Source: a virus
Taxonomy: Duplodnaviria; Caudoviricetes
Virus record (IMG/VR): IMGVR_UViG_3300048837_000207
Coordinates: 1 to 58,797 of that record
DNA: 58,797 nt
Reading direction: 5' to 3' (one strand)
Every line of letters begins with the position of its first letter. The stretch's first letter is position 1. The translations under genes were made by a program, and so were the position numbers. Of this stretch, positions 42,315 through 58,797 are shown one piece after another. The notes under the pieces were generated by a model. It was not told the origin of the DNA. It searched no databases and saw only the letters and a list, made by a program, of their open reading frames with translations.

Positions 42315-44173
42315 TACTTGCAGTCTCCGAAGGTCGGACCCCAATGGACTTCCACCGCAACAGGCAGGTCGGGTGCCCATGCAGGTGGTGCCGACATGAT
42401 CTGTGTGATCTGCGCGGCAAGTGTCTCAGCATCCCTCTCCGGGACCACGTAGTCAAGTTCGTCGTGGACCTGCAGCACCATCTGGAGGCCCAATTCCCGA
42501 TGGATCGTGAGCATGTTGTCCATGACGATGATGCGGGCAAGGGCCTGCACGATGTTCTCGGCCAGCTTGCCGCCGAAGAGCTTCCGGGTCTCGCGACCGA
42601 AGGTGTAGATCCAGTCCCCGGTGTCGCTGCGGCGCAGGTCGTTGTAGTAGATCGGCATGCCGTTTGGCAGGATGATCATGTTCTTGGCGGTCATGCAGAC
42701 CTGCTTACCGTCGGGGGGCGCGATGATCGCCTTCCCTTCACCTGTGGCAATCATCGACAGGATGCGGTCGAACTTGTTCCACAACTGTGGAATCTCGCGG
42801 TACAGGGTGCGGTAGGTGTTGACGAGCTTCTGGGCCTCAACCAGCTCGACCTTGACGTTGTCCTTCCTGAGAGTCGTCTGGAGCTTCGGCGCTCCCATGC
42901 CATAGCCGAGGCCAAGGATGCAGGTCTTGCCGACGAACCGGCGGGCGTCGTCCTCCTTGGACCGCCCCTTGACCACGTCCACCCGGTAGGCATTGGCAGC
43001 GAAGGACGAGTACACGTCCTGCCGGTCCCGGAAGCCCTGCGTCAAAATGTCGCACCCGGCCAGCCACGACACGATGCGGGCCTCGATCTGCGAGAGGTCG
43101 GCGCCCAGCACGACATGCCCCTTTGGCGCACGCATGGCAAACCGGATCTTCGATTTGTCCACCCGTGGGGGGTTCTGCATGTTGATCTTCTGCGTACCGC
43201 CGTACCGGCCCGTGTGGGCCGCGTAGTAGTTCAGGGGGACCCTGAGCTTCCGGTGGCGCTTGGCGATCTCCAGCAGCCTCCCTGTGCGCGTCTCACCGAT
43301 CGTGGACTTCATCCCGAGGCGAGCCTCGATCAGGCCAGTCACGATTTCATCGTCGGCGTACTCCTCCTGCAGGGCCTTGAACTCCGGGTCGCCCTTGGCG
43401 AAGGCCCACGTCAGCTTGTCAGTCGTGAGGGAAACCTTCGTCGGTGGTTCCACGCCGATACGCTGCAGGACGGCGGCGAACTTGTCGTTTGACATAAGTT
43501 CGTCCTTCGTCGCCAGCCGGGAGAGCGATGCCATGAGCTGCGCCTTCTTGGCGATCTCGTGCTGCAGCTCCTTGGCGAGCAGGTTGGCATCCAGCTCCAG
43601 CACAGGATCGAGGTACATCCTGTGTGTGAGGTCCATGATCGCGAACTCGGAGCGGGGGAACAGGGGCTTCAGGTGCTTGAACAGCAGCCACGTTCCCTCA
43701 ACGTCGGTGATGCAGTAGTCCGCGTAGGAGTACAACTCCGTCTGCGACAGCGACTGCCGTGACCGGCCAATCATGTTGTGGACCTCGACGCCCTTGCGCA
43801 GGCCATCGAAGTCGCAGTACTCCAAGCACTTCGCCAGCGACACTCCGGACAGGAAGGGCCGCAGGTGGGCCTGAGCCATGCTGATGGTGTCGAAGATGAA
43901 CTTGGGCCTGATCCCAAAGACCTGCTGCAGGATGGTCGCGTCGAACATCATGTTGTGGCCGACGACAGCGTTGTTCGGGATATCAAGGGCAGACAGCCAC
44001 TGCGCCGTCTGCTTCTTGGTACCACTGAACCACTGCGTTGGCTCCTCATTCACCTTGGCAGCGACGAGGATGACCTCAAACCGAGGGTCGGTGATGTAGT
44101 CCTCGGTGGACATCTTCGACAGCGAGAACTCGCGGTCGTAGTAGGTTTCGAAGTCGATCGTGATGATGTTCAC
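42314..44173 (-). CDS. polA: family A DNA polymerase with 3'-5' exonuclease
   Basis: IDFET, HNMMFD, YCITDV; HTGR, NMQN, DLSQIEAR (motif A), R..GKTCILGLGYG (B), QVHDE (C). Confidence 0.93.
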   Translation of the reverse strand: MNIITIDFETYYDREFSLSKMSTEDYITDPRFEVILVAAKVNEEPTQWFSGTKKQTAQWLSALDIPNNAVVGHNMMFDATILQQVFGIRPKFIFDTISMAQAHLRPFLSGVSLAKCLEYCDFDGLRKGVEVHNMIGRSRQSLSQTELYSYADYCITDVEGTWLLFKHLKPLFPRSEFAIMDLTHRMYLDPVLELDANLLAKELQHEIAKKAQLMASLSRLATKDELMSNDKFAAVLQRIGVEPPTKVSLTTDKLTWAFAKGDPEFKALQEEYADDEIVTGLIEARLGMKSTIGETRTGRLLEIAKRHRKLRVPLNYYAAHTGRYGGTQKINMQNPPRVDKSKIRFAMRAPKGHVVLGADLSQIEARIVSWLAGCDILTQGFRDRQDVYSSFAANAYRVDVVKGRSKEDDARRFVGKTCILGLGYGMGAPKLQTTLRKDNVKVELVEAQKLVNTYRTLYREIPQLWNKFDRILSMIATGEGKAIIAPPDGKQVCMTAKNMIILPNGMPIYYNDLRRSDTGDWIYTFGRETRKLFGGKLAENIVQALARIIVMDNMLTIHRELGLQMVLQVHDELDYVVPERDAETLAAQITQIMSAPPAWAPDLPVAVEVHWGPTFGDCK

Positions 44174-44203
44174 TGAAGCTCTTTCGCCTGATCGCTGTTG
44201 TAG

Positions 44204-44401
44204 TCATTCATGGAACCCTGCCCTCCGCATTCTGGATATCTGATTCTTGATCGCCCTGTGATCGGACGGGGTTGACCCCGAGACCACGATCGACTTGCCG
44301 TCAGGTGCGTACCACTTGTAATGGGCCGCATTACTTCGCTCGACTCGCCAACCTTGCCTGACGGCAGCTTGGCGTAGGCGCTCCAGCTCTTTACACTTCA
44401 T
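44204..44401 (-). CDS. HicA-like small protein
   Basis: GWRVERSNAAHYKWYAPDG..IVV...TPSD.R pattern, 65 aa. Confidence 0.5.
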   Translation of the reverse strand: MKCKELERLRQAAVRQGWRVERSNAAHYKWYAPDGKSIVVSGSTPSDHRAIKNQISRMRRAGFHE

Positions 44402-44958
44402 TTGGCGTACCTCTTCATCAGGAAGCTCACCCACTGGACGACGTTCACTTCCAACTGGTTGAGCGAGCCATAGTTCTTCACGGTCCCCTCAATAAGTGCC
44501 GGGGAGATCCCTTTCTCCGACGAGTGTGCAGCCACGGGGGCAACCCCCTCGCGATCGACCTTCCACACGGTGCCGCCCGCGTTGATGATAGTCTGCGCCT
44601 CGTTGTCGAACCGTACGTCGGTCACGACCATGCGTGGGGAAGTCATGGCCCGTACCTCGTCCCACCTGCGCAGCATCAACATCACCCACAGGTCGGGGTG
44701 TACGTGCTGCCTGCCCCACTCGGTGCCAAGCGTCTGCGCAACCTGCCGTGGGGATTTGCCGAGCCAAGGGATAACCTGCTCCTTGCGCTCCCGGTCGTCC
44801 CAGACGTGAAGGTCGATACCGAGCATGGCTTCCAGCCCCATCTTGAGCGGCATGGCAAGCGTGTAGCGAGAGAAGCCGCAGTTCGCCATGTACATGGCGA
44901 CGGTGTCTTTGCCGCAGCCTGCGGGGCCGCAGAGTCCAATCAGCAGTTGCTTGCTCAC
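44398..44958 (-). CDS. deoxynucleoside monophosphate kinase
   Basis: IGLCGPAGCGKDT, SPRQVAQTLGTEWGR, VTDVRFDNE, HSSE. Confidence 0.88.
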   Translation of the reverse strand: MSKQLLIGLCGPAGCGKDTVAMYMANCGFSRYTLAMPLKMGLEAMLGIDLHVWDDRERKEQVIPWLGKSPRQVAQTLGTEWGRQHVHPDLWVMLMLRRWDEVRAMTSPRMVVTDVRFDNEAQTIINAGGTVWKVDREGVAPVAAHSSEKGISPALIEGTVKNYGSLNQLEVNVVQWVSFLMKRYAK

Positions 44959-45227
44959 CGGGTTGAGTCCTTGCGCAGTACGAACCTGTTGTGGAGAAGC
45001 ATCGCGGCGAGACAGCCGGTGCCGCCTCCGAAGCCTAGTGCCAGAACCAGCCATATCGTGAATCCCTCTTTGGCAACCATCGCCACAACGTAGACTTCGA
45101 ACAGGGCCATCGCGTTGCTCGTCGCGACGACCCAGCCGTAGTTGTTGTGTATGACATTGCGTTGCTGAAACGCCTTCAAGAAGATAAAGGCGAAGTTGGC
45201 AGCGAACGTGGCGAGGAAAGCGATCAT
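44955..45227 (-). CDS. small multi-pass membrane protein
   Basis: Three hydrophobic segments, LKAFQQRNV, GGGTG. Confidence 0.6.
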   Translation of the reverse strand: MIAFLATFAANFAFIFLKAFQQRNVIHNNYGWVVATSNAMALFEVYVVAMVAKEGFTIWLVLALGFGGGTGCLAAMLLHNRFVLRKDSTR

Positions 45228-45490
45228 GCCTCGACCGTGACGACCTTCCTGATCGGACCCCTGCCGTCTGCCGCGTCTGCCGCTGCCCATGCCGCGTTCC
45301 AGCGCGTGGTATCCCAATGCCGCTTCGGCACAGGGGCGGCTTGCGGGTGCGTGAACGCGAACTGCATCGTCGGGCGCATATCGTGGTAGACGATGTTGAA
45401 CACCTTGCGAGCGTGGTTGCTCCAGCCCTCCCACTGCCGCTTCGGCACCTTGTGCTTGTTGAGGACTGGCCTGCCCATGTTCTTTGTCAT
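45224..45490 (-). CDS. hypothetical protein
   Basis: AAGGAGAC RBS; first gene of the replication operon. Confidence 0.65.
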   Translation of the reverse strand: MTKNMGRPVLNKHKVPKRQWEGWSNHARKVFNIVYHDMRPTMQFAFTHPQAAPVPKRHWDTTRWNAAWAAADAADGRGPIRKVVTVEA

Positions 45491-45519
45491 GTAGTCTCCT
45501 TGTGAAAATGATAGTTCAT

Positions 45520-45662
45520 GCCCCGTCTCGTGGGGCCTACGGCGGATCCAGAGTTCGCTCTTTATGAGGCGGCTTCACTCCCCCGCTGGCGACCGTTACT
45601 TTGTTGGGCCGAAGCCCGCAATGTCTCGCGACCTGTCGCCTGCGCGAGGGTGCGCTAGCACC
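45520..45662 (-). ncRNA. candidate structured leader RNA
   Basis: Several hairpins including cUUCGg and a potential 6-bp pseudoknot between a promoter and the first RBS. Confidence 0.4.
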
Positions 45663-45675
45663 TAACTTAAACAGC

Positions 45676-45703
45676 AGTATGCCCACGAATCCGAAAATGT
45701 CAA
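45676..45703 (-). promoter_or_regulatory. sigma70-like promoter for replication operon
   Basis: Minus strand TTGACA-N16-CATACT, just downstream of a terminator. Confidence 0.6.
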
Positions 45704-45717
45704 GCCCTACAGCAGAC

Positions 45718-45748
45718 AAAAAAATGGGGACCCCCGAAGGGGTCCCCA
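45718..45748 (-). terminator. intrinsic terminator ending the early operon
   Basis: TGGGGACCCC-TTCG-GGGGTCCCCA followed by T7. Confidence 0.9.
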
Positions 45749-45779
45749 AAGTGTTTTCGGGCACTTGCTAGGCTAGCAA

Positions 45780-46505
45780 TCAGGCGATGCCGTGGACTAC
45801 CCGAACCGGCCAGTCAGGACTGATCGTCTCGTCCGGTAGCAGCAGCGCCTCCGTGATGACCGCATCGTACGGGGCCAGCGCGGCAGGCGTCCATTCCTTG
45901 TCCAGCAGCACTGCCTCCGGTAGCCTCGACCGCACCTTGATCTTGCGCACGACTTCCTGCCCACGTTCAGGCAGGAAGCTGCACAGGTTGGGCCACAGCC
46001 GGTGGATCTGCCCCATCGTGTTGCAAGCCGAGAAGGCCCGCTCGACCTTGTTGTAGACCTGCGCACGCTCGATATCGAGCTTCACCCACCGCTCGCCCCA
46101 CTCCACCAGTGCATCCACCATGCTGATGGGAAGTCGGCTCATGTTCACCATGTCTGCGCCGGACCTCCATGTCTCGGTAGATGGCAGTGGCAGGCCAGTG
46201 CCGAACTTGACGAACATGGTCAGCGGCATCCTTGGCGGGGAGAACACAGTATCGACCTTGAACTCCTTCACGTCCCACTGCAGCGTCAGGTCGCTGTTCC
46301 GATGCAGCAGTGTCGGCATACTGGACTTCAGCAGCCGCAGGGCCGCACGTTCCTCATTTGTCCACAGGTGCCGGTAGATTTCCTTCGGGGCTATGGGGCA
46401 GGGGGCGAGCAGCCCCATCCGGTTCACCATCCGTTGCCCTACTCGCTCCAAGACTTCCGACTTGGAGTAGTCGCGGACGGTCTGGTTGTGTCGTCGTCGT
46501 CTCAT
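45780..46505 (-). CDS. hypothetical early protein
   Basis: GGAGG RBS, ATGA overlap; LWPNL motif; resembles upstream neighbour. Confidence 0.7.
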   Translation of the reverse strand: MRRRRHNQTVRDYSKSEVLERVGQRMVNRMGLLAPCPIAPKEIYRHLWTNEERAALRLLKSSMPTLLHRNSDLTLQWDVKEFKVDTVFSPPRMPLTMFVKFGTGLPLPSTETWRSGADMVNMSRLPISMVDALVEWGERWVKLDIERAQVYNKVERAFSACNTMGQIHRLWPNLCSFLPERGQEVVRKIKVRSRLPEAVLLDKEWTPAALAPYDAVITEALLLPDETISPDWPVRVVHGIA

Positions 46506-47206
46506 GTTATGCCCTCCTTATTGAGGCCAATCCACGCTGGTAGTTTCCCGTCAGCAGGCAGCATCACGGAGGCTGCCAACAGCTCGACCAAGCGAACAGA
46601 ATCTGCTGCCGACAGGCGAAGGTTGAGCCTCCCCCTGATGGCTTCGATCCTGCCGGTGTCCCGATGCGGAGCAGTCCGCATCCCTGCCAGCAGGGACGGC
46701 ACCGCACTCGCGACCTCTGGCCACGCGCGAGCGATATCCGCCTTGCTGGAGAACAACGGAGAGACCTCGTAGATCTTGTTGTGGAAGTGTCGGATCTCCG
46801 TGTCCATCGCTTCCGCCTTCGCGTACCAAGCCGTGAGCTTAGGGTCCTTGCGCACCGCCTCGTCCAGCATGAACGGTGATAGTACGCTGCTGGGACACAC
46901 AGGGCAGTCCTCCATGTGTAGCCAGAACGGCTGGACAGGATCAGCCCAATCGTCCACCGTGCGTGGATCCTGCAGGGTGAAGTGGATTACCTGCTGCCGT
47001 GCCGTCGCGCGCAGCAGGTTCCGGTACGCTATGTTGTGGTGGTGCATGGACGTGGGGACACGATCCACGAACCACTTGGCCACTTGAGGGGTGAACGCCC
47101 CGGAGTAAACCTTCACCGGGTCGCATGGGAACGGGATCGTCTGCCTCAGTCGAGGCAGCAAACCCGCCAGCTCAGTACGAAACGTGTACCTGACTGCTTC
47201 ACTCAT
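46502..47206 (-). CDS. hypothetical early protein
   Basis: Overlaps VWA gene end; AWPEV motif. Confidence 0.7.
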   Translation of the reverse strand: MSEAVRYTFRTELAGLLPRLRQTIPFPCDPVKVYSGAFTPQVAKWFVDRVPTSMHHHNIAYRNLLRATARQQVIHFTLQDPRTVDDWADPVQPFWLHMEDCPVCPSSVLSPFMLDEAVRKDPKLTAWYAKAEAMDTEIRHFHNKIYEVSPLFSSKADIARAWPEVASAVPSLLAGMRTAPHRDTGRIEAIRGRLNLRLSAADSVRLVELLAASVMLPADGKLPAWIGLNKEGIT

Positions 47207-48455
47207 AGTCGCTCAGCTCCACGCGAACCAGATCACCGAACGGCGGCTGCACGTCCGTCGTCATTACCCAGATGACGGGGTAAGGCGGCGGGACCGGAGG
47301 GAACGTGCCGTAGCCGTCGGTGAAGAAGATCAGGCAGTCAGGCACGATGCCAAGTTCCTCCACCTTCTGGAACGCAGGGATGAAGTTCGTACCACCGCCA
47401 CCGCGAAGCTCGGGCTTGTAGGTGTAGAGGTCGGTGTTGGCATCCAGTTCGTGAACGTCATGCACCTTGGCGTCACAGGACATCAGCCACAACCGCTGTG
47501 GCCTGCATGTGGAGAGAATCTCAGCCGACTCGGCGTAGCTCGCATCGAACTCAGCCTGCCCCATGCTGCCAGAGGTATCCACCACCTTGACCACCGTGCC
47601 AGCGCCGAACCCGGTGTAGCTCGGGAAGAAGATCTTCTGAGTCACCAGCCGACGGCGATGCGGTGACGCCCACGACGTAGCCTCACGGCTCACGATACGT
47701 GTGACGATGTGCCGCAGCCGATCCTTCCAGTTGACCTGCGGCTTGAGCATCTCCTCCACCCAACGCTCAAGGCTGGCGGGCATCTTCCCCATTGCCTTGG
47801 CTTGGTTACGTGCCGACGCAATGGACCGCTTCATCTCAGCCTCGGACTGCTTCGACGGCTCGTAGATATGGGTGTCCATCGGTTGCTGGTCTCCCACACC
47901 TTCGTTGGACGGGTCCCCTTGGCTGCCGGGAGGCGGCTGTCCACCGCCCGGTCCACCCGGCCCTTTCCCCTTGCCACTGGGAGGCGGCTTGAGCTTCTTG
48001 GCGAGCAGCCGGTACACATCCTCAAACAGCTCGGTGCCTTCCCTCGCGATGTTGGTGTCGTACAGCAGTCCCTTCGGCATCTGCCCGATCTTGTTGGCAA
48101 CGAGCAGCGCGTTGACGATGTAGTCGGCTGCGATGTTCGCCAGTCCGGGGTGGAACGGCTTGCCTTCGAAGCCGAGATCCGAGTACCGCTTGAACCGATC
48201 CATGTGCATCCACATGGCGTGGCCAATCTCATGGCAGCACACGAACACGGCCTCGGGTAGGCTCAGCTTGGCGAGGAAGTCCTCGTCGAACCAGATGAGC
48301 TTGCCGTTGGTCGCAGCAGTGGGGATGCCGGGGTACTTGCCCACACGCAGGTCCATCATGTCGAGCATGAGGGACGCAAAGAACGGGCAGTGCAGAAGCA
48401 TCGCGGTCTTCATTTCGGTGAACCGCGTGCGTGCTACGGGGTTGTTGATTTCCAT
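47199..48455 (-). CDS. DUF2201-type metallopeptidase plus VWA domain protein
   Basis: TAATNG, CHEIGH, NIAADY; MIDAS DTSGSM, GGGTNF, FTDGY. Confidence 0.88.
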   Translation of the reverse strand: MEINNPVARTRFTEMKTAMLLHCPFFASLMLDMMDLRVGKYPGIPTAATNGKLIWFDEDFLAKLSLPEAVFVCCHEIGHAMWMHMDRFKRYSDLGFEGKPFHPGLANIAADYIVNALLVANKIGQMPKGLLYDTNIAREGTELFEDVYRLLAKKLKPPPSGKGKGPGGPGGGQPPPGSQGDPSNEGVGDQQPMDTHIYEPSKQSEAEMKRSIASARNQAKAMGKMPASLERWVEEMLKPQVNWKDRLRHIVTRIVSREATSWASPHRRRLVTQKIFFPSYTGFGAGTVVKVVDTSGSMGQAEFDASYAESAEILSTCRPQRLWLMSCDAKVHDVHELDANTDLYTYKPELRGGGGTNFIPAFQKVEELGIVPDCLIFFTDGYGTFPPVPPPYPVIWVMTTDVQPPFGDLVRVELSDYE

Positions 48456-48485
48456 CGTTGTCTCCTTGTTGCTAGCCTAGCAACG

Positions 48486-49118
48486 TCAAAGGTCGAGGCC
48501 GGTCTGGAGGTTGAACGTCAGGACCGGCTTGCTCCTGACGAACTCCAGTAGTGGCATGCGCAACGGCAGCAGTTCCTTCTGCCACTCACGAACGAGGTTC
48601 GCGAGCTTACTGGTTGCGGGCTTCAGGTGGCCGCCGCTACGCCGCCATCGGCTGCGGGACATGGGGACTTCGTCGTCCTTCACGTGGTGCCCCACGTTCC
48701 ACCCATCAACGCAGAGCCACATGAACTGACCAGTCCAGCTATCGCAGCGGCGAATCGCCACGGCGGTGCGCAGGTCTACGTCAACCATGTGGGCGGCGGC
48801 GATGAGGTCCGTCTTGCAGGCTTCGGCCTTGTCGATGGGCACCAACACGTTCATGTTCTTCTTGCCCACGTAGCCGATGTTGGGGACATTCGGAGCCTCG
48901 TCGCAGTTGTCGAGCATGGTGAGGACGGCTCCTACTGCGTCGCCGTGGGACACCTTGAATCCCTGCTCGATTGCGGAACACACCTTGGTGAAGTCGGACT
49001 TCTTCATCCGCTCCCACCGAAAAGTGATAGTTCCAGTGCAGGTAAACGCCTCGGTCAGGTCGCTGCACACGTAGATTCCACCGACACCAGTGTGTCCGCT
49101 GATTCGTGATACGTTCAT
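48486..49118 (-). CDS. hypothetical protein
   Basis: AAGGAGG RBS before ATG 49118. Confidence 0.65.
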   Translation of the reverse strand: MNVSRISGHTGVGGIYVCSDLTEAFTCTGTITFRWERMKKSDFTKVCSAIEQGFKVSHGDAVGAVLTMLDNCDEAPNVPNIGYVGKKNMNVLVPIDKAEACKTDLIAAAHMVDVDLRTAVAIRRCDSWTGQFMWLCVDGWNVGHHVKDDEVPMSRSRWRRSGGHLKPATSKLANLVREWQKELLPLRMPLLEFVRSKPVLTFNLQTGLDL

Positions 49119-49120
49119 GG

Positions 49121-50383
49121 TCAGACCTCCTTGGCCATGCGGTCCATCATGTTGATGACTTCCTGTGCGTGAGCGCCGACCTCGGCGCGGAGCGTCGGCT
49201 TGGTCCGAAGTTCCTCCACGTCGTGCTGGCACAGGTGCTTGTCGATGTACTGGCGAATCTCTTCGATCCGCTTGTCACCCGTGACGTTCAGGTGCTTGAG
49301 CTGGCCGGACACCGACCGAACGTTGTCCACCAACGTGTAGTGAAACAGCTTGTCGGGATGCGACAGCCGCTCAGCCATACGCCCCACGTTCTCGTGGATG
49401 CGGACCCACAGGTCCTGCATGGCGTTCTCCAGCATCCTCTTCGTCTTGCCCTTCAGTGCGTCAGCCAGTGCCTGACACTGGGCCTCGGGCAGCCCCTTGA
49501 AGTCCGAGCCGACCGGGATCGGATGGAAGTCGAACGAGATATCGAAGTGCTGCCGGATCGACTCAGCATTGGGGTAGTCCGAGATATCGAACCGCTTGCC
49601 GAGCTTCTTCTTGGCCTCTTCGATCAGTTGGGGGTACAGCGGCACAAACGCATCCACCGCTGCCTCCATCTCCGCCTTGCGAGCGCCGAGCTTGCTGATG
49701 CAGTCGAAGAACGATGTGTTGGGCATCATCCTCGCCCCCGACCGACGGCCTGTGTCGTCCAGACCAGTGGTCGTCCACGGCGCAGTCACCGCGTAGAAGT
49801 CGGCACGTGCCGAGTCGATCGCCTTGTGGATCTTCTTCAGTTCCGTGTCGGCCCCCGCGAGCAGGTGCTTACGGGTTTCGAACGCAGTCACGTCGGCGTC
49901 GTTCGCATCGGCCACGTCTTGGCTGGCCTTGCGATCCTTCACCTTCGCATGCCACCTACGTGTGTTGAGCGTCACCAACGTGGCGAAGTTGCGCAGGTCC
50001 AGAGTCTCTGCGATCTCGTCGGTGGTGAACGTCGGCATGGTCATGGGCGGCAGCGAGTAGTCCGTCCTGTCCTTGGTGTCGGCAAAGGGCAGGGTTTCCT
50101 CCTGCGGGGCCGCAGGCTCGGTGATCGGCAGTTGCTCGCTGAAGTCAGCGAACGCCTCGCCTACCGGGTCCGTTGCTAGGCTAGCAACGTCGGGCTGGTC
50201 CATGATTTCCGTAGGCAACGGCTCGCCGTGGGTCAGCTCCTGCACGTCCGTAATCAGCGGCTCAAGCTCGGACTTGGGTTCCTCCACAGGTGCCGAAATG
50301 ATAGTTTCCGGCTCCTGCACAGGCAGAGGCTTGCTCTCGTCGAGGATATCAGCGAGCAGTTCGTCGAGGTTGAAGTCAGTCAT
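49121..50383 (-). CDS. AAA/VWA-associated helical protein (DUF3150-like) with acidic N-terminal extension
   Basis: KHLLAG, T.PW...G.R, LGKRFDISDYP, LKHLNVTGD; AAGGAGAC RBS. Confidence 0.65.
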   Translation of the reverse strand: MTDFNLDELLADILDESKPLPVQEPETIISAPVEEPKSELEPLITDVQELTHGEPLPTEIMDQPDVASLATDPVGEAFADFSEQLPITEPAAPQEETLPFADTKDRTDYSLPPMTMPTFTTDEIAETLDLRNFATLVTLNTRRWHAKVKDRKASQDVADANDADVTAFETRKHLLAGADTELKKIHKAIDSARADFYAVTAPWTTTGLDDTGRRSGARMMPNTSFFDCISKLGARKAEMEAAVDAFVPLYPQLIEEAKKKLGKRFDISDYPNAESIRQHFDISFDFHPIPVGSDFKGLPEAQCQALADALKGKTKRMLENAMQDLWVRIHENVGRMAERLSHPDKLFHYTLVDNVRSVSGQLKHLNVTGDKRIEEIRQYIDKHLCQHDVEELRTKPTLRAEVGAHAQEVINMMDRMAKEV

Positions 50384-50510
50384 TGTGTGTCTCCTTGTAG
50401 CGTCGAAGGGTCTCAGCATCCACCAGCCACGTGGCGGCAGCGTTGAGTGCGAACATTGCCATGCAGCAGATCATCAGCAGCGTATCCCGCACGGCTTGGG
50501 ATACAGTCAT
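50376..50510 (-). CDS. 44-aa putative membrane peptide (absent from ORF track)
   Basis: MTVSQAVRDTLLMICCMAMFALNAAATWLV...; fills a gap in the operon. Confidence 0.4.
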   Translation of the reverse strand: MTVSQAVRDTLLMICCMAMFALNAAATWLVDAETLRRYKETHND

Positions 50511-50518
50511 GAAAGCGT

Positions 50519-50689
50519 TCACCAGTTGGTCTCCTTGCGTCGTAGCTCGATCTCCATGCGGAGCCTTTCCACTTCGCGTTCAGAACGGCGGTGTTCTTCC
50601 TCCGTGCGCTTGAAGCGCCGAAGGGCCTGTTCAAGCTCCATCTCCATCCGCCAGAGCGGGAGCCTCGGTTGCAGTCGGTGGGCGTTCAT
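50519..50689 (-). CDS. 56-aa coiled-coil protein (absent from ORF track)
   Basis: GGAGGA RBS, ATGA overlap; MNAHRLQPRLPLWRMEMELEQALRRF... Confidence 0.5.
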   Translation of the reverse strand: MNAHRLQPRLPLWRMEMELEQALRRFKRTEEEHRRSEREVERLRMEIELRRKETNW

Positions 50690-51018
50690 CCTTCCTCCTT
50701 CATGATGCGAATCGCTTCGGCCTCTGTGTAACGGCGGACAAGTTCAGGGTGCAGCCGAATGATGCCCCCCTCACTCACGTACTCGGTGCTGAGCATGCCT
50801 GCCGCCAGCAGGATATCCCCACCCCTTGACGCTCCCCACTGGACCAGCCGAACGTCGAACATGTCGGCATGCACGACGCCACGCTGGATGCGGTGTTCCA
50901 GTCTCACTTGGATAGCCCCTCCCCATCCTGCGATGGTGGCGCGATACCCGCTGGACTTACTGCCGCAGCGAGTGGCCTCCCCCTTCGTGCCCTTGATGCT
51001 GCCGTAGAAGTGGCTCAC
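50686..51018 (-). CDS. hypothetical protein
   Basis: GTGA overlap with AAA gene; SHFYGSIKG..GEATRCGSK.SG. Confidence 0.6.
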   Translation of the reverse strand: MSHFYGSIKGTKGEATRCGSKSSGYRATIAGWGGAIQVRLEHRIQRGVVHADMFDVRLVQWGASRGGDILLAAGMLSTEYVSEGGIIRLHPELVRRYTEAEAIRIMKEEG

Positions 51019-52082
51019 TTGCGCTGCTCCAAGATGTTGGCCGCCAGCACCAGATCCTTGTTCTCCCGGATCCACTGCGCGAAGTCGGGGGTCTGGATCA
51101 TCTGCGGGCAACGGCGCAGCACAGCCTTGAGGCCAGCCACCTGAAACTCCTTGCCCAACCGCTTGAGGAAGGTGAACGCAGGCTTGGCCGTGGTGGCATC
51201 CACACGATGCGCGACCATCTGCATGCAGGCATACGTCGCGTCGATCCGGTTCTCGGGAACCTTCACCTTGTCGGGTGTCGCCACGATATCCTCCCACTTG
51301 GGCAGTTCCTCAGCCACACGCAGAAACGCAACGAACTCAGCCGCTGCACCTTCACCGATGTAGCCACCTGCCGCCTCGGTGAACATGTCCATTGGCAGCT
51401 TGCCGATCAGATGGCTGGTCTTGACGAACGTGCGGGGAGTGCAGAACGGACCCGACTTGTCCGGTACCTTGTCAGCGAAGATCAGGCTCGGCTTCACCTT
51501 TGCGAATGCAATGGCGAACGGGTTCAGCCCCTGCCGCTCGGCCCAATCGACCCACGAGTCCAGAGAGGGTTCGATGTTGACCCGGCAGATGCGGTTCTGG
51601 ATGAACGCCAGATCCCGGTTCACGCCCGAACGATCCGACTCACGGTTCGATGCCGCGACGACCATGTACGTGAGTTCGAGCCGTGACTCGCCCACTTGGC
51701 CTGACAGCATCAGTTCCGCACTCGGCTTGGCAACGTCGGGGTTGGCCTGCGCACGCTCGTTGAGGAAGATGAAGCCGTGCTTGGGGTCATTCGCACGCGG
51801 GACCCACGGTGCCTTCGTGAAGGTCATGATGGGACTGTTGTCCGTATCACGACCGGGGAGGCCGAAGCCACGTACGTCCGGTGCCTCAACCGTGGTGAGA
51901 AAGAAGGACTTGATGCCGAAGGGCTGTGCGAGCCGCTTCGAAATGATAGTCCCCGCCTGCGCCACGGCAGCATCCTTGCCGACGCCCGGCCCGGACACCA
52001 GCTCCACGGTGAAGCGTTCGCCCGTCTCCTGCTGAATGAAGTACATGTCGGCAAGGAAGATGGCAGCTTGGTTTACGTTCAT
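51015..52082 (-). CDS. MoxR-like AAA+ ATPase with variant Walker motifs
   Basis: SGPGVGKD, DVRGFGLP, FIFLNE, VAASNRESDRSG, QNR, TPRT; VWA partner in same operon. Confidence 0.82.
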   Translation of the reverse strand: MNVNQAAIFLADMYFIQQETGERFTVELVSGPGVGKDAAVAQAGTIISKRLAQPFGIKSFFLTTVEAPDVRGFGLPGRDTDNSPIMTFTKAPWVPRANDPKHGFIFLNERAQANPDVAKPSAELMLSGQVGESRLELTYMVVAASNRESDRSGVNRDLAFIQNRICRVNIEPSLDSWVDWAERQGLNPFAIAFAKVKPSLIFADKVPDKSGPFCTPRTFVKTSHLIGKLPMDMFTEAAGGYIGEGAAAEFVAFLRVAEELPKWEDIVATPDKVKVPENRIDATYACMQMVAHRVDATTAKPAFTFLKRLGKEFQVAGLKAVLRRCPQMIQTPDFAQWIRENKDLVLAANILEQRK

Positions 52083-52128
52083 GTGTGTTGTCTCCTTCGA
52101 TTGATGATTGATCTAACGAACATGCGCC

Positions 52129-52341
52129 TCACGGCGCTTGCATCCAGTATCGAGCGGCCTCGTCGCTCCAGATGTCCTTGACGAGCTGCGCCGCAGCCTT
52201 GTTCGTTCCAGACATCAGTGGGTAGCCGTCCCGGTTGCGGACGATCCACGTACCGGGGTGCGACGTTGACTCTTCCAGTTCGAACGGTGCGTTGAGTGCG
52301 GCCCACTCAGGGTCGCTGGGCGTTGGGGGTTTCCTCGTCAT
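52129..52341 (-). CDS. hypothetical early protein
   Basis: AAGGAGG RBS. Confidence 0.55.
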   Translation of the reverse strand: MTRKPPTPSDPEWAALNAPFELEESTSHPGTWIVRNRDGYPLMSGTNKAAAQLVKDIWSDEAARYWMQAP

Positions 52342-52528
52342 ACATCCTCCTTTCGTAGGTATCACGGATCACTGCCCACGCGTTACGCGGCTCACCCTTG
52401 GCGCGTAGCACGTGGCCCATGTGGATGAGGAACTCGGCTTCACCTGTCTGGGTAGTGGTAGTGACGGTATTGATGGTCGCGGTGCCGAACTGCAGCATGT
52501 ACGCTGCAAGCCAGTCCTCGTCAGTCAT
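52307..52528 (-). CDS. hypothetical early protein
   Basis: ATG directly after a palindrome copy; fits operon packing. Confidence 0.5.
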   Translation of the reverse strand: MTDEDWLAAYMLQFGTATINTVTTTTQTGEAEFLIHMGHVLRAKGEPRNAWAVIRDTYERRMYDEETPNAQRP

Positions 52529-52532
52529 GTTG

Positions 52533-52709
52533 CTAACCTAGCAACAGGCGGAACCAGTTGACCATCTGGTAGATGGCCTGCAGGCTCCACACGAAGCACA
52601 AAATGATAGCGATAATGCAGGCAATCCTGCCGATCGCGCCGATTGCTGCCCATGTGTCGAGCAAGATCAGCGTGCGTGTGGGGTCGATGCCTTTACGTCT
52701 CTCGTTCAT
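52533..52709 (-). CDS. small membrane protein
   Basis: GGAG RBS; hydrophobic IACIIAIILCFVWSL. Confidence 0.5.
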   Translation of the reverse strand: MNERRKGIDPTRTLILLDTWAAIGAIGRIACIIAIILCFVWSLQAIYQMVNWFRLLLG

Positions 52710-52956
52710 TTGGGTTCTCCATGAGTACGACTTCATAGTCGCGGTGGTCGAGGCTGTCTGCCCACTGGTCTGCGGACATGACAGAGGGGAAGGGTCCATA
52801 CGCTTCAGAGTCTCCGTCACCTGAGCGATGGACGATCAGCACGAACTGGTAGCGTTCCTCCTTTGGTGGTTGATCGAACGGTTTCATAGGCGAGCCACAG
52901 CCCGAACAGGTCTCGGGCTTCTGGGCTTCGGTGCCGCAGGCAGCGCAGATCCACAT
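52693..52956 (-). CDS. zinc-ribbon protein with YGPF domain
   Basis: GGAGG RBS; CAAC...CSGC; AYGPF. Confidence 0.6.
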   Translation of the reverse strand: MWICAACGTEAQKPETCSGCGSPMKPFDQPPKEERYQFVLIVHRSGDGDSEAYGPFPSVMSADQWADSLDHRDYEVVLMENPNERET

Positions 52957-52958
52957 GG

Positions 52959-53627
52959 TCAGCCTCCCTTCACGAGTTCCTTCACCCACCAGTCACCCTG
53001 CAACTTGTCCCCATAGTCACTGGCATCAGAAGGATCATCGAAGGGACCGTAGTACTCCATGCCGTCCACAGGGTTGCCGTGGATCAGGATGTACAGCGCG
53101 GGCTTGACGGCAGGATTGGTGACGTAGCCGGTGGCCGCCTTGTTCTTGACCCACTCACTGGCCAGCTCACGCAGCCGCTTCTCGTGGTTGTGCAGCGATT
53201 CGTGGAGCATCTTCCCCATCGCTTCGGCACGGCCAATCGCCTTGGTCGTCGTACCTTCCTTCTGGATCAGCGCCAGAACTTCGTTGTTCAGCTCGGCCAG
53301 TCGATTGTTGAACAGATCGAACTTCTCAGCCGTGGTGATCGACCGCCTGTCCATTTCCTCCCTTGTGTCCACGACTGCCCTACCGGCCAGATCAGCCTTG
53401 CAGAACGCATCGGACGACTGCTTGGTCAGGAACGCGATCCGGTCCTGCAGGGCCTTGATCACGTCGTTGTTGGACTCGTACCACTCGGTGTGGCCTTCGA
53501 TGTGGTCATGCACGCGAGCGAACAGCAGGTCGAACTTGTCCCGCAGATCCCTGATGCCCTGCGCCAGCTCAGCGGCGCGTTGCAGAGAGATATGGGACTT
53601 CTGGGTTGTGGATTTCTTCGTGGTCAT
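52959..53627 (-). CDS. coiled-coil protein with C-terminal YGPF domain
   Basis: AAGGAGAC RBS; heptad-rich; YYGPF. Confidence 0.7.
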   Translation of the reverse strand: MTTKKSTTQKSHISLQRAAELAQGIRDLRDKFDLLFARVHDHIEGHTEWYESNNDVIKALQDRIAFLTKQSSDAFCKADLAGRAVVDTREEMDRRSITTAEKFDLFNNRLAELNNEVLALIQKEGTTTKAIGRAEAMGKMLHESLHNHEKRLRELASEWVKNKAATGYVTNPAVKPALYILIHGNPVDGMEYYGPFDDPSDASDYGDKLQGDWWVKELVKGG

Positions 53628-53680
53628 GTGTGTCTCCTTGCTAGGTTAGCAACGTGTGAAAAATGATAGTTTGAGGGGCT

Positions 53681-53699
53681 GGGGGGCAGAACGCCCCCC
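53681..53699. other. GC-rich hairpin between early genes
   Basis: GGGGGGC-AGAAC-GCCCCCC, no clear U tract. Confidence 0.35.
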
Positions 53700-53722
53700 G
53701 CCATGCGCAGAGAACCTGCGGC

Positions 53723-54223
53723 TTACTTGAACTCGCCGATGAGCCACGCCAGCTTGTTGGCATCGCCGGTCATGAACGACTCGTCAATGCTGCGGGCAAG
53801 ATCCTGCCACTTCTCGACCTCGCAATGCGGAACTTCCAGCTTGCGAGTGTCCTCCCTGCGGCCATAGTCATGCGTCAGGCCGAGTGCCGGGAACGCCACC
53901 TGCGTGGTGTACGTGGAGCCGACGGTGGGCAGGGTGTCGATCGTGGCCTTCACTTCCTCGGCAAACTCCTTCATGGCCACGGCATCGAACTGCACGGCGC
54001 ACTCAGCCCCCCATCCCCGCTGGATGGCAGTGATATCGGGCCGGATCGACTTCACCAGTCGCTTCTCGTACTTCTTCAGGATCTTCTGCGCCGCCGCTTC
54101 GATCTTCGCGTTGTTCGTCAGTTCGAACTTGGCCGCCAGATCGGTCTGCAATTTGCAGGCCGCCGTCGCCTTGGCCATGAGCATGGACTTGATGACGCGA
54201 AGCTGTGCTTGGGTGATCTTCAT
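53723..54223 (-). CDS. hypothetical early protein
   Basis: AAGGAGA RBS before MKITQAQL. Confidence 0.7.
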   Translation of the reverse strand: MKITQAQLRVIKSMLMAKATAACKLQTDLAAKFELTNNAKIEAAAQKILKKYEKRLVKSIRPDITAIQRGWGAECAVQFDAVAMKEFAEEVKATIDTLPTVGSTYTTQVAFPALGLTHDYGRREDTRKLEVPHCEVEKWQDLARSIDESFMTGDANKLAWLIGEFK

Positions 54224-54252
54224 GTGTTTCTCCTTCGTTGCTAGGTTAGCAA

Positions 54253-54471
54253 TCAGTTGATGGTCGGATTGGCCGCGAGTATCTGGTCGATCAAGTCGAT
54301 GCACTGCTCGGCCTGTGCCAGTGCCTCGGCATGCTGTGCGCCCCCTCCTTTCAGGGCCTTCAGTCGGTTGTAGAGCTTGACCCACTCCCAGCGAATCTCC
54401 TTCGCGCGGGCAATGGTCTCGGCATCCAGCGGCTGCGACAACTGGATGTGGTTGGTCACGAAGATGTTCAC
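54253..54471 (-). CDS. hypothetical early protein
   Basis: GGGAGG RBS, GTGA overlap. Confidence 0.55.
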   Translation of the reverse strand: MNIFVTNHIQLSQPLDAETIARAKEIRWEWVKLYNRLKALKGGGAQHAEALAQAEQCIDLIDQILAANPTIN

Positions 54472-54587
54472 GGGTACGGCCTCCCCGCCTCGACCACCCA
54501 GAGGACCATGAACATGATCCACAGGACGGCAACTGCGAAGTAGCCCAGCCAGCCCAGCACACGTGCCGAAAATGATAGTTTCCTCAT
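54468..54587 (-). CDS. 39-aa membrane peptide (absent from ORF track)
   Basis: TGATG overlap; MRKLSFSARVLGWLGYFAVAVLWIMFMVLWVV. Confidence 0.5.
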   Translation of the reverse strand: MRKLSFSARVLGWLGYFAVAVLWIMFMVLWVVEAGRPYP

Positions 54588-54778
54588 CACTTCCACCCTC
54601 CCCTGCCAAAGATACGGTCGAACTCAGCCTCGAAACGAGGACTGGCCAGAGCCTCCGATACCGCAACGTCCTCGGCGCGGTCGTCCTCGGGCTTGGGCGG
54701 CACGTATGTGCAATGAGGGCAATCGCCAGCGATTGCTTCCCCTCCACAGTACGTGCAGACATGTGTTGGTGCCGTCAT
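54587..54778 (-). CDS. small zinc-finger protein
   Basis: CTYC...CPHC; TAATG overlap. Confidence 0.55.
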   Translation of the reverse strand: MTAPTHVCTYCGGEAIAGDCPHCTYVPPKPEDDRAEDVAVSEALASPRFEAEFDRIFGRGGWK

Positions 54779-55686
54779 TACATATCCCTCTGCAGTGCGT
54801 TCAACGAGGCATTGGTGGCAACGAGGTCGAGCTTGTCGTTCAGCGCCCGACGCTGGTCCTCCATTCTCTCCTCCAGATCCATCAAGGCACGGCGAGCTTT
54901 CCCGCCACGCTTGGTGGGAGGCTTGGGGGTCTTGGGTTTGCGCGTCGAGTTCATCGTGCGCTGCTCGGCGTAGACCTCGTCAATGGTGGGGCACGACTGA
55001 ACCGCGATCATGAAGCCCCTCACGTCGGGGCCGGAGTACTTCGGCAGCGAGACCCAAGCCGACAGTTCCTCGGTCACGGTGGGCGCGGCATACACAGGGT
55101 TGCCGTTCTCGTCCTGTGTGTCGTAGGGCTGCGGGGTTGCTAGGCTAGCAACGAGCGTATCGGTTATGTCGGAGTCCGGCCTCGGCCACTTGGCAGGCTT
55201 GGGTTCAGGCCGTGCGTTGGGATCGAACCCCTCGGGCAGGCGCCCACACACGTCGGCGTAGCTCCAGATGATGTACGGCGCATAGGTGATGGCGCCAAGG
55301 AACTGGGTCTCGTACCCGACTTTATCTGCCGTCACGTTGACCGAAATGATAGTTTTCGTGAGCGTGTTGCCAGAGCTGATCAAGTCATCCACGAACACCC
55401 ATCGCCTGCCGATCGTGCCTTCGATGCACTCGGAGCTGTGCGAGCCGTCGTTGTCCTTGCGGGCAATGGCCCAGCGCAGCCCCAAGGCTCGTGCCACGTA
55501 GGGCACAACCAGTGCGCCCGACAGGCCACGGCCTACGAGCGTGTCGCACTCGTCGAACTCTGCGAAGTTGGCTAGTCCCTCCTTGATGTAGGGAATGATC
55601 GCATCCAAGTCAGCCAGTGCCGATTCGAGGTATGGCGCGTGGGCCATGAGGATATCCCCGTCGGCGGACATGATTACGCGAGGCAT
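54778..55686 (-). CDS. type I phosphoribosyltransferase-domain protein with C-terminal extension
   Basis: LVGRGLSG, IARK, PRPP-binding loop WVFVDDLISSGNT. Confidence 0.8.
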   Translation of the reverse strand: MPRVIMSADGDILMAHAPYLESALADLDAIIPYIKEGLANFAEFDECDTLVGRGLSGALVVPYVARALGLRWAIARKDNDGSHSSECIEGTIGRRWVFVDDLISSGNTLTKTIISVNVTADKVGYETQFLGAITYAPYIIWSYADVCGRLPEGFDPNARPEPKPAKWPRPDSDITDTLVASLATPQPYDTQDENGNPVYAAPTVTEELSAWVSLPKYSGPDVRGFMIAVQSCPTIDEVYAEQRTMNSTRKPKTPKPPTKRGGKARRALMDLEERMEDQRRALNDKLDLVATNASLNALQRDM

Positions 55687-55687
55687 C

Positions 55688-55840
55688 TTACTTCCCCTTG
55701 CTGTGTGGAACCGTGAACTTACCGGCACGGTCGGTGTACCGTGTCGGGCTGTCCTGCCTGTGGTCGTACTTGAGCTTCTGCTCGCGCCGCTTGGCGTGGC
55801 GGTCCGAGAGTGGCTTGCCGTACTGGTTCGTGGATTTCAT
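55688..55840 (-). CDS. small basic protein
   Basis: GGAG RBS, MKSTNQYGKPL... Confidence 0.5.
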   Translation of the reverse strand: MKSTNQYGKPLSDRHAKRREQKLKYDHRQDSPTRYTDRAGKFTVPHSKGK

Positions 55841-55929
55841 CGTCGTTCTCCGTGTGGTGCCCCATTGGTGGATGCTATGGGTTGTGGGGCTGTCGGCCCA
55901 TAGCGTGTGTGTGATTGCTAGGCTAGCAA

Positions 55930-56345
55930 CGGGAAGCGTCATCCAGATGGATGGCTGTGACGCTTTCGCTGGACGCTTTATTTCCGTTTAGGATCAAGGG
56001 CTTAGGGGGTATTGGGTAAAGGGACCACGTTTTTTTTACACGTAACGCTGTGGGGCTTTGGTCCCCAATCCCCTGACCCTTCTCTCTGCCCTGCCCTCAC
56101 GTGTAACCATCCTCAGTTAGCTCTATACCTCTTTTACCTATTTATATATAAGTATATAATATATAAAGGAATTCATCCAAAAGAAGCGTCCCGCAATTTG
56201 CCGAATAAAGCGTCACATGTTGGCGCTTTCGTGCCGGAAGCCCCGTACAGTACGTGCCGCGATGATAGTAATCCGCCGCTTTTCGGCCCCCCAGCCTCAC
56301 GTTCCCAACACGTAAGGTTCAAAGCTACGTGTTGGGAACGTGTCC
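55930..56345. other. AT-rich non-coding region, putative replication origin / control region
   Basis: TTTATATATAAGTATATAATATATAAA at about 56141-56167, AAGCGTC/GACGCTT repeats, 17-bp perfect inverted repeat. Confidence 0.55.
56298..56342. repeat. perfect 17-bp inverted repeat with 11-nt spacer
   Basis: CACGTTCCCAACACGTA (56298-56314) / TACGTGTTGGGAACGTG (56326-56342). Confidence 0.9.
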
Positions 56346-56413
56346 AGCCATTGCTAGGCTAGCAACACGTGTGGGGAAAAGCCTCAAGGGCCGAGGTTTG
56401 CCATGACGCGGAC

Positions 56414-56442
56414 AAAAAAAGGGAGCGCCTTGCGGCGCTCCC
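56414..56442 (-). terminator. intrinsic terminator
   Basis: GGGAGCGCC-GCAA-GGCGCTCCC followed by T7. Confidence 0.9.
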
Positions 56443-56454
56443 AATTTCGGCCTG

Positions 56455-57192
56455 TTAGCCGACGGCCAGCGGGTTGTTGCGGTACGTGTTGCCGTGCTTC
56501 AGCGACACCGCGCAGTTGTCGGCCCAGAGGACCAACTGCGCCTTTGCCTTGGCATTGAGGCACGCCGGGACCGCAGCGCCCTCGGGCTTGAGGTTCAGGA
56601 TGCGGTCGATCAACGTCGCCACGTCCTTCGCGTACTCCGGTGTCGCGGCGGCGGCGGCCTTGCGGGCTTCCATGACCGCAGCGAGGTTGTACGCCGCGTC
56701 TTTCAACTCTGTGCAGAGTTTGCCCGCGTCCACCACACCGTGGATGATTCCCTGCTCCTTCGCCTGTGCAAGGATCGTGCTGCACGTGAACAGCGCCTTC
56801 GCCCTGCTGTGCTTCTGGTCGCAGGTCCGCTTGATGCGGTCCTGATCTTCCTTCGGCAGCTTCGACGTGTCGCCGTAGGATGCCGCGAGCTTCGCGCGCA
56901 CTGCGTCGGCGTGCTTGTTCACCACTTCCTCGGGGAGCGGCTTCCCGCGCCACTCGGCGGGAACGTGCGGCGCGAAGGACAGCACAGCACCGAGGAACGT
57001 CGTGTCCCTGCTGTGAGTGTCGAACGACTTCACCACTGCATCTTCCAGCGCGGTCCACGCCGACTCGGCGATTGCTAGGCTAGCAACCTCGGGCGTCGTC
57101 TGCTGAACCGCGTTCAGCACGGGCTGGCCACCCTGCGCCGCGAGCTTGGCTTCAAGTTCCGCGATCTTCTGAGCCATTGTCTGTCGAGCCAT
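56455..57192 (-). CDS. monocistronic hypothetical protein (245 aa, Ala/Lys-rich)
   Basis: CAGGAGA RBS before MARQTMAQK; has its own terminator. Confidence 0.75.
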   Translation of the reverse strand: MARQTMAQKIAELEAKLAAQGGQPVLNAVQQTTPEVASLAIAESAWTALEDAVVKSFDTHSRDTTFLGAVLSFAPHVPAEWRGKPLPEEVVNKHADAVRAKLAASYGDTSKLPKEDQDRIKRTCDQKHSRAKALFTCSTILAQAKEQGIIHGVVDAGKLCTELKDAAYNLAAVMEARKAAAAATPEYAKDVATLIDRILNLKPEGAAVPACLNAKAKAQLVLWADNCAVSLKHGNTYRNNPLAVG

Positions 57193-57359
57193 TGCTTTCT
57201 CCTGTGGGACGGTATGTCCATAGGACGGGTGGTGGGGGAGGGGGGGTCCGGCGCTCGGCGTTGCTAGGCTAGCAAGTCGCGGGGCTACCGGGGTGCCGGA
57301 CACCGGCCACCCCCGTCCGTAGGCCCCTATTAGGCACTTCAGCCCCACACCAAGTAGGG

Positions 57360-57389
57360 TAGACAACCTACCCTACCCCGGTTTATCCT
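57360..57389 (+). promoter_or_regulatory. sigma70-like leaderless promoter overlapped by a 9-bp inverted repeat
   Basis: TAGACA-N18-TATCCT-N6-ATG; GTAGGGTAG/CTACCCTAC at 57354-57376. Confidence 0.45.
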
Positions 57390-57395
57390 CCCCCG

Positions 57396-57878: not shown

Positions 57879-57879
57879 A

Positions 57880-57907
57880 TTGACTTGTTGTGATTCGTAC
57901 CCATAAT
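57880..57907 (+). promoter_or_regulatory. sigma70-like leaderless promoter
   Basis: TTGACT-N16-CATAAT-N6-ATG(57914). Confidence 0.6.
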
Positions 57908-57913
57908 AGACCC

Positions 57914-58347: not shown

Positions 58348-58364
58348 TTTCCCAGAATCAGGGA

Positions 58365-58393
58365 TTGACACCCACACCCGGCCCACGGATAAT
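58365..58393 (+). promoter_or_regulatory. sigma70-like leaderless promoter
   Basis: TTGACA-N17-GATAAT-N6-ATG(58400). Confidence 0.7.
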
Positions 58394-58399
58394 TCCGGC

Positions 58400-58791: not shown

Positions 58792-58797
58792 AGCGGG

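Follow-up and report, generated by a model that had tools for sequence, protein, structure and literature searches.

The virus record IMGVR_UViG_3300048837_000207 raises the question of why one short, asymmetric word should recur on a single strand of an early gene arm, inside genes as well as between them, and what might read it there. The window analysed here is the whole of that IMG/VR record (58,797 bp, with an estimated completeness of 97%), and PHROGs and Pfam scans give it a podophage-like layout with two convergent arms meeting at about 34 kb: the plus strand from 4.9 to 34.1 kb is given over to structural genes (portal, major head protein, internal virion protein and a 3610-aa polyvalent virion protein), and early and replication genes run on the minus strand from 57.4 down to 34.0 kb. 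The word in question, hereafter M, has the core YTATCAY and takes the form CTATCAT in the window when read on the minus, i.e. coding, strand; its companion, hereafter P, is a 15-bp palindrome. A sequence-only reading of this DNA had proposed a co-oriented motif that would act as a polar cis-element of the early region, and our results bear this out, M being polar and confined to the early leftward arm. More broadly, M is real, conserved, under selection and paired with a faster-evolving second element. A full-text literature search on four motif forms found no published description of M, its sole match being an E. coli paper without relation to it.

An exact word on the sense strand of the early arm

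Within the early arm, M is exact and occurs on the sense strand only. Nine exact copies of CTATCAT lie on the minus strand between 44,591 and 56,268 and none on the opposite strand of that zone, so that the strict co-orientation claimed by the sequence-only reading holds (9 versus 0 in 44.6-56.3 kb), and two CTATCAC variants add to them; the coding-strand consensus is rAACTATCATTTy, and M takes here the form AACTATCATTT, often followed by GCACGT. On the plus strand AATGATAG is found seven times, and on the minus strand never (0.35 expected; 0 of 100 shuffles reached seven), a 13-mer search allowing at most two mismatches returned six matches, all on the plus strand (0.14 expected), and every one of the 11 plus-strand occurrences of the core TGATAG falls within 44586-56263. 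A leave-one-out position weight matrix (PWM), scanned over both strands of the whole window, gave 11 matches on the minus strand, all of them within 44591-56268 (an 11.7-kb zone), and two on the plus strand. The excess also stands against codon usage: when 20 early genes are shuffled synonymously, 0.88 intragenic copies are expected and six are observed, a count that 0 of 2000 shuffles reached. Since this codon-preserving null expects only 0.07 antisense copies, the empty antisense strand alone is no evidence, and it is the sense-strand excess that counts. One-mismatch variants of the 7-mer occur at background level, and the word is sharply defined.

All eight copies that had been listed from the sequence are at their places on the plus strand, and three were missed: those in the leader and in the dNMP kinase gene, and a weaker variant (Table 1). 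On our heuristic gene map the earlier division into six intragenic and two intergenic copies stands (the latter at 45509 and 53664, with the first base 24 and 42 nt before an ATG), as does the observation that more than one reading frame is used, five intragenic copies being read as xCT-ATC-AYx and one as CTA-TCA.

A large clade of uncultured podophages has conserved M. The ATPase gene of the window led to five related viral contigs, an alignment of which raised the total to 32 (labelled L0xx or G0xx below), and in most of these YTATCAY is conserved and co-oriented; sense and antisense counts of CTATCAT are 9/0 in the window, 9/0 in L006, 8/0 in L007 and 8/1 in L008, and the complete genome G002 (62 kb) has eight copies on one strand, all within 14.6 kb. 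A second clade has CGTTATCAY instead. Counted with genome-specific 9-mers in ten complete genomes, the early arm contains 83 sense versus five antisense copies, whereas outside it seven lie on the same physical strand and eight on the other, i.e. at chance density; G012 has two well-flanked same-strand copies in its late arm. Copies follow one another at about 1.1 kb over 11-17 kb of each genome, a coverage that leaves the earlier suggestion of a translocation-polarity signal without support, and the coefficient of variation of this spacing is 0.36-0.55 in 11 of 15 genomes versus about 0.85 in simulations, the other four not differing from random (P 0.21-0.32). A word that is kept on one strand, evenly spaced, in more than 20 phage genomes and at a cost in amino acids must do something important for these phages. 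Two complete genomes, G013 and G014, keep all core genes and lack M. A search for alternative asymmetric words in the motif-less contigs L021, L025, L009 and L024 yielded no extended consensus, and a word of L030 that had been considered as an equivalent of M was rejected as a tandem coding repeat; there, positions 7130-7380 hold 18-nt tandem repeats (CGGGTGTTCGGCAATGCG-like) within a coding region.

Among phages in culture, those of the RHph_TM27A group, which infect Rhizobium, are the nearest relatives (portal 51%, ATPase 31% identical), followed by podophages infecting marine Alphaproteobacteria; near and distant DNA searches among cultivated phages returned no close match to the window. 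RHph_TM27A (L012) has no excess of YTATCAY and carries GCGCACTCAY in its early arm, seven times in sense and never in antisense, with the GCACTCA core of two copies starting 21 and 25 nt before GenBank-annotated start codons. Both this phage and the window have a co-oriented early-arm motif with copies shortly before start codons, and the core of GCGCACTCAY differs from that of M at two or three positions. The two elements may be homologous; if so, a cultivable phage with a diverged version brings M within reach of the bench. Positions 18000-46000 of the RHph_TM27A record further contain GGTAAC and GTTACC, which are mutual reverse complements, about 30 times each versus about five expected, and the record annotates neither these words nor GCGCACTCAY.

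Pairing with lineage-specific palindromes and cost to coding sequence

M is coupled to P in order and distance, the polar order being M and then P. At five gene junctions of the window P follows a stop codon and directly precedes the ribosome-binding site of the next gene, and inside genes it reads V-A-S-L-A. The palindromes of the relatives have the same 7-N-7 build and another sequence, e.g. TTAACAG-N-CTGTTAA or TTAACTG-N-CAGTTAA, and in L007, L008, L014 and L023 they are of the form TTAA-N7-TTAA, which we take to be the CtrA-box form of Alphaproteobacteria; P differs between lineages while M stays. Across 14 genomes (L017 and L027, for which the chosen half-site revealed no 7-N-7 palindrome family, were left out), 43 of 135 copies of M have P within 200 nt downstream, versus 15.0 expected and with 0 of 2000 simulations reaching 43, probabilities that overstate independence because the genomes are related and some sites orthologous. 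Upstream, P lies within 200 nt of 11 of the 135; within 50 nt the counts are 13 downstream versus one upstream, and the gaps from M to P measure 5-197 nt. The order of the two elements along the window, PMPMPMPMPMPMMPMPMPMM, comprises 18 runs versus 10.9 expected, alternation is significant at 0.05 in nine of the 14 genomes, and the M-then-P polarity recurs in lineages with different palindromes and at non-orthologous sites. The notion of a two-part code with the palindromes is upheld by these figures, whereas the remark that most copies lie within 5-600 bp of a palindrome, although true, is trivial at such a density, the signal residing in the polar order.

The first early gene (56455-57192, minus strand; 245 aa) has one palindrome upstream, one inside and a strong terminator after it. 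A homologue of its product is detectable only in L006, the sole relative with the same palindrome, which makes this protein a candidate reader of P and a candidate palindrome-binding regulator.

The copy in the leader, M1, is part of a composite that is also present in L006, L007, L008, L010, L014, L018, L019, L023, L027 and L030. A second box, GCACGT, follows the core after 1-5 nt in the leader copy of nearly every genome and in several other copies of the window, and the leader order of P, about 100 nt, M with GCACG, about 115 nt and an A+T tract is kept in four genomes with three different palindromes. The tract is possibly a host-type early promoter or a replication origin; upstream of it, at 56292-56330, the leader of about 600 nt also holds a 14-bp inverted repeat, GTTCCCAACACGTA ... 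TACGTGTTGGGAAC. The early arm has two strong terminators, and a copy of M lies within about 150-210 nt after each. A scan of bacterial genomes for the leader composite returned four matches, about the number estimated from chance and hence no clue to the host; the one inspected (L091) reads as bacterial coding sequence.

Conservation over 42 aligned sites from five genomes spans positions -6 to +11 only. Position 0 is C in seven genomes and mostly T in ten, and the flank at -2/-1 is CG in 15 of 17 genomes; the other two, the window and L027, have AA there without being each other's closest relatives. Where four orthologous coding sites can be compared, position -1 is A in the window versus G in L006, and three of these differences are Ala-to-Thr changes; at the ATPase site, found only in the window and L006, A/T-I-I-S replaces the D-K-I-A-type residues of the other relatives. 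The intragenic copies, mostly in the frame xCT-ATC-AYx, are found where the protein tolerates change, as in the first 100 residues of the 420-aa protein, which are poorly conserved. It is the nucleic acid on which selection acts, and coding copies have been gained at the cost of amino-acid changes. Because the flanks shift in concert within a lineage, the reader of M would be lineage-specific and probably phage-encoded. This concerted change mirrors the co-evolution of nickase and site that was proposed by the authors of the study on phage tf (PMC3517423).

What might read the motif

The explanation that we prefer, albeit tentatively, is that M would be one half of a repeated polar two-part control module of the early leftward arm, in which M is followed after 5-200 nt by a lineage-specific 15-bp P that usually abuts the ribosome-binding site of the next gene. 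M may possibly be a phage-specific, -35-less, promoter-like initiation signal, used by host RNA polymerase that a phage factor would redirect, and P an operator or the 5' hairpin of the transcript; the leader copy, being the best match to the extended consensus, would be the first promoter of the operon. A precedent for such an arrangement is phage T7, in which promoters are followed by RNase III hairpins and one copy of the motif lies beside the A+T-rich primary origin. Like the T7 promoters, M recurs about ten times, in one orientation and with sharp conservation, along some 10 kb of early and DNA-metabolism genes, a hairpin or palindrome precedes the next ribosome-binding site, one copy neighbours an A+T tract and the variants track the lineage; unlike them, it has a shorter conserved span (about 11-18 bp), the majority of its copies do not stand immediately before a gene start and no phage RNA polymerase is detectable in the window. 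Copies within 100 nt on either side of a called start number 69 of 163 versus 49.6 expected on heuristic gene calls, and copies whose first base is 21-28 nt before an ATG recur in the window, L006 and L010, as they do with the diverged motif of RHph_TM27A.

A number of observations weigh against this preferred explanation. No RNA polymerase or sigma factor was detected in PHROGs or Pfam scans of the window proteins and no transcription factor by PHROGs, Pfam or NCBIfam; six-frame searches found neither sigma region 2 nor a T7-like RNA polymerase (PF00940), the latter being a weak search in that the control genomes gave no match either. The giant virion protein was considered as a hidden polymerase and rejected, as phmmer and a five-sequence profile against PDB returned lysozyme-like and internal-virion-protein matches only. 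Neither a -35-like element nor any second conserved block is present upstream of M in the 42 aligned sites, and in half the clade C and T are about equally frequent as the last core base. Copies 0-100 nt upstream of a called start number 31 of 163, versus 24 expected, and the largest excess falls 25-100 nt inside genes (31 versus 18.9 expected), on an early-arm gene map that is our own heuristic, built from open reading frames (ORFs), ribosome-binding sites and third-position G+C (GC3). Downstream of the copies in the ATPase, 420-aa and 210-aa genes no start codon follows for 0.5-1.3 kb, only a third of the copies of M have a nearby P, and to this must be added the relatedness of the genomes behind the coupling test. 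Of the functions that had been suggested from the sequence, the promoter and nut-like ones are accordingly possible and unproven. Were M a promoter or a processing signal, it would be of a new class, in phages without a polymerase of their own, and its pairing with lineage-specific palindromes offers a handle that known systems lack.

The closest published anatomy, a parallel that the sequence-only reading did not draw, is that of the nick-associated motifs, known in Bruynoghevirus-like phages (tf, LUZ24, Rembedalsseter), where they read WACTRTGAC or TACTRTGMC, and in T5 and phiKMV-like phages; the sources (PMC3517423; PMC11780129) describe 9-14 exact copies per genome, on one strand and in one half of the genome, mostly on the coding strand, 88% of them within coding sequences and often at gene beginnings, with lineage variants and a dispensable function. 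In LUZ24, all nine copies are on the top strand, eight in the early arm and five of these intragenic. M is alike in that about ten exact copies, largely intragenic, crowd into the early half of a podophage genome whose arms converge, with lineage variants, absence from some relatives and a similarly puzzling function. It is therefore conceivable, if unlikely, that a phage-encoded, strand-specific nickase cuts the packaged DNA at each copy of M: the AACTATCAT of the window agrees with WACTRTGAC at 7 of 9 positions, the window encodes nuclease candidates (VRR-NUC, PD-(D/E)XK and an endonuclease VII-like protein), and G013 and G014 keep their core genes without M, the LUZ24 pattern agreeing likewise. 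Such a nickase would leave the polar coupling and alternation with palindromes unaccounted for, and no palindrome partner of the nick motifs is described in the accessible parts of the sources or seen in the LUZ24 contexts; moreover, the motifs of LUZ24 and tf keep to one strand outside the early arm, whereas copies of M there, at chance density, show no strand preference (7 versus 8), and most relatives (CGYTATCAY) agree with the nick motif at about 5 of 9 positions only. By tblastn the LUZ24 and window proteins share just a tail-collar domain and a small membrane protein, i.e. two minor matches between unrelated lineages. The assembled contigs of four sequencing runs showed neither ends of molecules nor informative breaks. 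For LUZ24, ONT-cappable-seq gave no promoter motif beyond sigma-70-like ones in the part of the report at hand (PMC10914365). M might represent a second, independent system for the unexplained nick-type motifs.

That M acts instead in the early transcript, as the site of a sequence-specific endoribonuclease or RNA-binding protein, seems to us improbable too. A cut there would inactivate or separate early messages and leave the P hairpin at the new 5' end beside the ribosome-binding site, which fits the M-then-P polarity, the strictly sense orientation of copies confined to early transcription units in coding and non-coding RNA alike, and the surplus of copies among the first 100 nt of genes, a place at which cleavage would disable the message; P itself could form a 6-bp stem with a 3-nt loop, as read from its sequence. 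Yet predicted accessibility gives M no advantage (unpaired 0.58 versus 0.56 with shuffled flanks, p = 0.18, 143 sites), no RNase candidate was found, and Rfam returned only one sub-threshold match (istR, E = 0.97). In addition, M1, the best conserved copy of all, comes soon after a strong terminator and before the A+T tract that is possibly the early promoter, so that it may lie in untranscribed DNA. Drawing on both kinds of cleavage, we advance as a speculation that M and P could be the two halves of an undescribed phage punctuation system, in which a conserved core nickase or endoribonuclease reads M and a fast-evolving partner reads P, cutting the DNA strand or the transcript of the early operon into units of about 1.1 kb; should the cut fall in DNA, the system would tie the puzzle of nicked phage genomes, now 50 years old, to the boundaries of gene cassettes in another phage group, unrelated to the first. 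A comparison of gene presence and absence singled out no reader: none of the window proteins both occurs in all nine complete genomes with M and is missing from G013 and G014, and none is shared by only the two genomes with AA flanks.

The sequence-only reading had also thought of a stoperator-like roadblock. The stoperators of cluster A mycobacteriophages such as L5 are found in both arms of temperate, repressor-encoding phages. M resembles them in being an asymmetric site (theirs spans about 13 bp) that occurs many times, in the direction of transcription, inside and between genes, and a phage protein bound there as a polar roadblock or at an operator, stopping the polymerase so as to shut the early operon unit by unit, would be consistent with the exactness of the site, the even spacing, a copy beside the putative early promoter region and flanks that co-evolve within lineages. 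We nonetheless regard it as doubtful, for such a roadblock gives no reason why P should come after rather than before M, and membership in the L5 type itself is unsupported, M being restricted to one arm and no integrase or repressor family having been found in PHROGs and Pfam scans. A nut-like antitermination signal, in which the box would be read with host Nus-type factors and the hairpin by a phage N-like protein, appears less credible still. In phage lambda, boxA is followed at a short, fixed distance by a phage-specific boxB hairpin, with one nut site per operon; M and P show the same order of a conserved linear box and a variable hairpin on the transcribed strand, M is kept where the palindromes all differ, and CGCTATCA agrees at 6 of 8 positions with what we take to be the boxA octamer of lambda. 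Unlike nut, M and P are separated by gaps that vary from 5 to about 200 nt, the copies number about ten per operon versus two terminators, the window and L027 no longer have the CG flank, and P has almost no loop (3 nt at most), with no accessibility signal to offset this. Most improbable of all is direct reading by a host factor, either as a sigma-70 -10 element or as a Chi-like signal that protects the entering DNA end. The textbook -10 hexamer differs from TATCAT at one base, and M is far more conserved than P; the last T of the -10 element is invariant, however, so that the frequent C at the last core base of M argues against host sigma, there is no -35 at 16-18 bp in the 42 sites, one-mismatch variants are not enriched, flanks shift between close relatives and the two host-type promoter candidates of the arm look different from M. 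What is left of our credence goes to something other than these six readings: promoter-like signal, nick site, transcript site, roadblock, nut and host-read site.

Features of the early arm and its surroundings

The copies of M, the palindromes and the signals around them are collected in Table 1. The minus-strand arm encodes a MoxR-like ATPase, a VWA/DUF2201 protein, a dNMP kinase, a family A DNA polymerase, nucleases, a SNF2 helicase and a primase-helicase. NCBIfam placed none of 15 early proteins in a family above its cut-off, and a protein atlas yielded a DUF3150-like lead for the 420-aa protein and nothing usable for the 88-aa one.

Table 1. Motif copies, palindromes and neighbouring signals of the early arm, in window positions
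Feature	Position	Strand	Remarks
M1, CTATCAT	56262..56268	-	Missed by the sequence-only reading; in the non-coding leader of about 600 nt; 4 nt, then GGCACGTA; best conserved copy across relatives
M copy	55346..55352	-	Within phosphoribosyltransferase-like gene, about codon 126; frame xCT-ATC-ATT
M copy	54572..54578	-	Codon 5 of a 40-aa ORF; frame CTA-TCA; then GGCACGTG
M copy, intergenic	53663..53669	-	G+C-rich hairpin before it; palindrome 10 nt after last base, then ribosome-binding site and ATG of a 222-aa gene
M copy	52603..52609	-	Towards the 3' end of an 88-aa ORF; flank TCG, shared with relatives; palindrome 58 nt on
M copy	51943..51949	-	Codon 45 of MoxR-like ATPase gene; only in the lineage of the window and L006, via amino-acid replacements
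M copy	50298..50304	-	Codon 27 of 420-aa DUF3150-like gene; intragenic palindrome 110 nt on
M variant, CTATCAC	49024..49030	-	About codon 30 of a 210-aa ORF
Weak M variant, CTATCAC	46876..46882	-	Missed by the sequence-only reading; poor flanks; score under PWM threshold
M copy, intergenic	45508..45514	-	First base 24 nt ahead of the ATG of an 88-aa gene; strong terminator and sigma-70-like promoter upstream
M copy	44585..44591	-	Missed by the sequence-only reading; codon 155 of dNMP kinase gene; orthologous site in L006
P, eleven 15-bp palindromes TTGCTAG-N-CTAGCAA	45765..57275		0-2 mismatches; starts at 45765, 48469, 50173, 52530, 53638, 54238, 55137, 55915, 56351, 57072, 57261
Intrinsic terminator	56421..56442	-	After first early gene; about 150 nt upstream of M1
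Intrinsic terminator	45725..45748	-	Ends a unit of about 10.5 kb that holds eight M copies
A+T tract	56130..56190	-	About 55 nt of almost pure A+T; starts some 80-130 nt past M1; equivalent tract correspondingly placed in relatives; possibly host-type early promoter or replication origin

The block of MoxR-like ATPase, DUF3150-like and VWA/DUF2201 metallopeptidase-like genes (47199-52082, minus strand) is kept in all relatives, and the ATPase has matches of about 29% in phages that infect Vibrio as well as many other hosts and have genomes of about 72 kb. The 3610-aa virion protein (23008-33840, plus strand) combines an N-terminal lysozyme-like domain, an LPD39 domain and an invariant HExxH near residue 2379; its C-terminal stretch of about 800 residues is conserved, and the homologues in relatives measure 2584-3550 aa. 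The co-occurrence of a methyltransferase, three glycosyltransferase-like genes, a dNMP kinase and a phosphoribosyltransferase-like gene (64-2557, plus strand; 44398-45054 and 54778-55728, minus strand) hints at modified DNA bases. A seawater metagenome (run X1), finally, contains a relative that differs from the window at roughly 2-6% of positions across 43500-58797, at a word depth of about 230-fold, and in which several short segments are replaced, e.g. 45542-45665 and 53203-53319.

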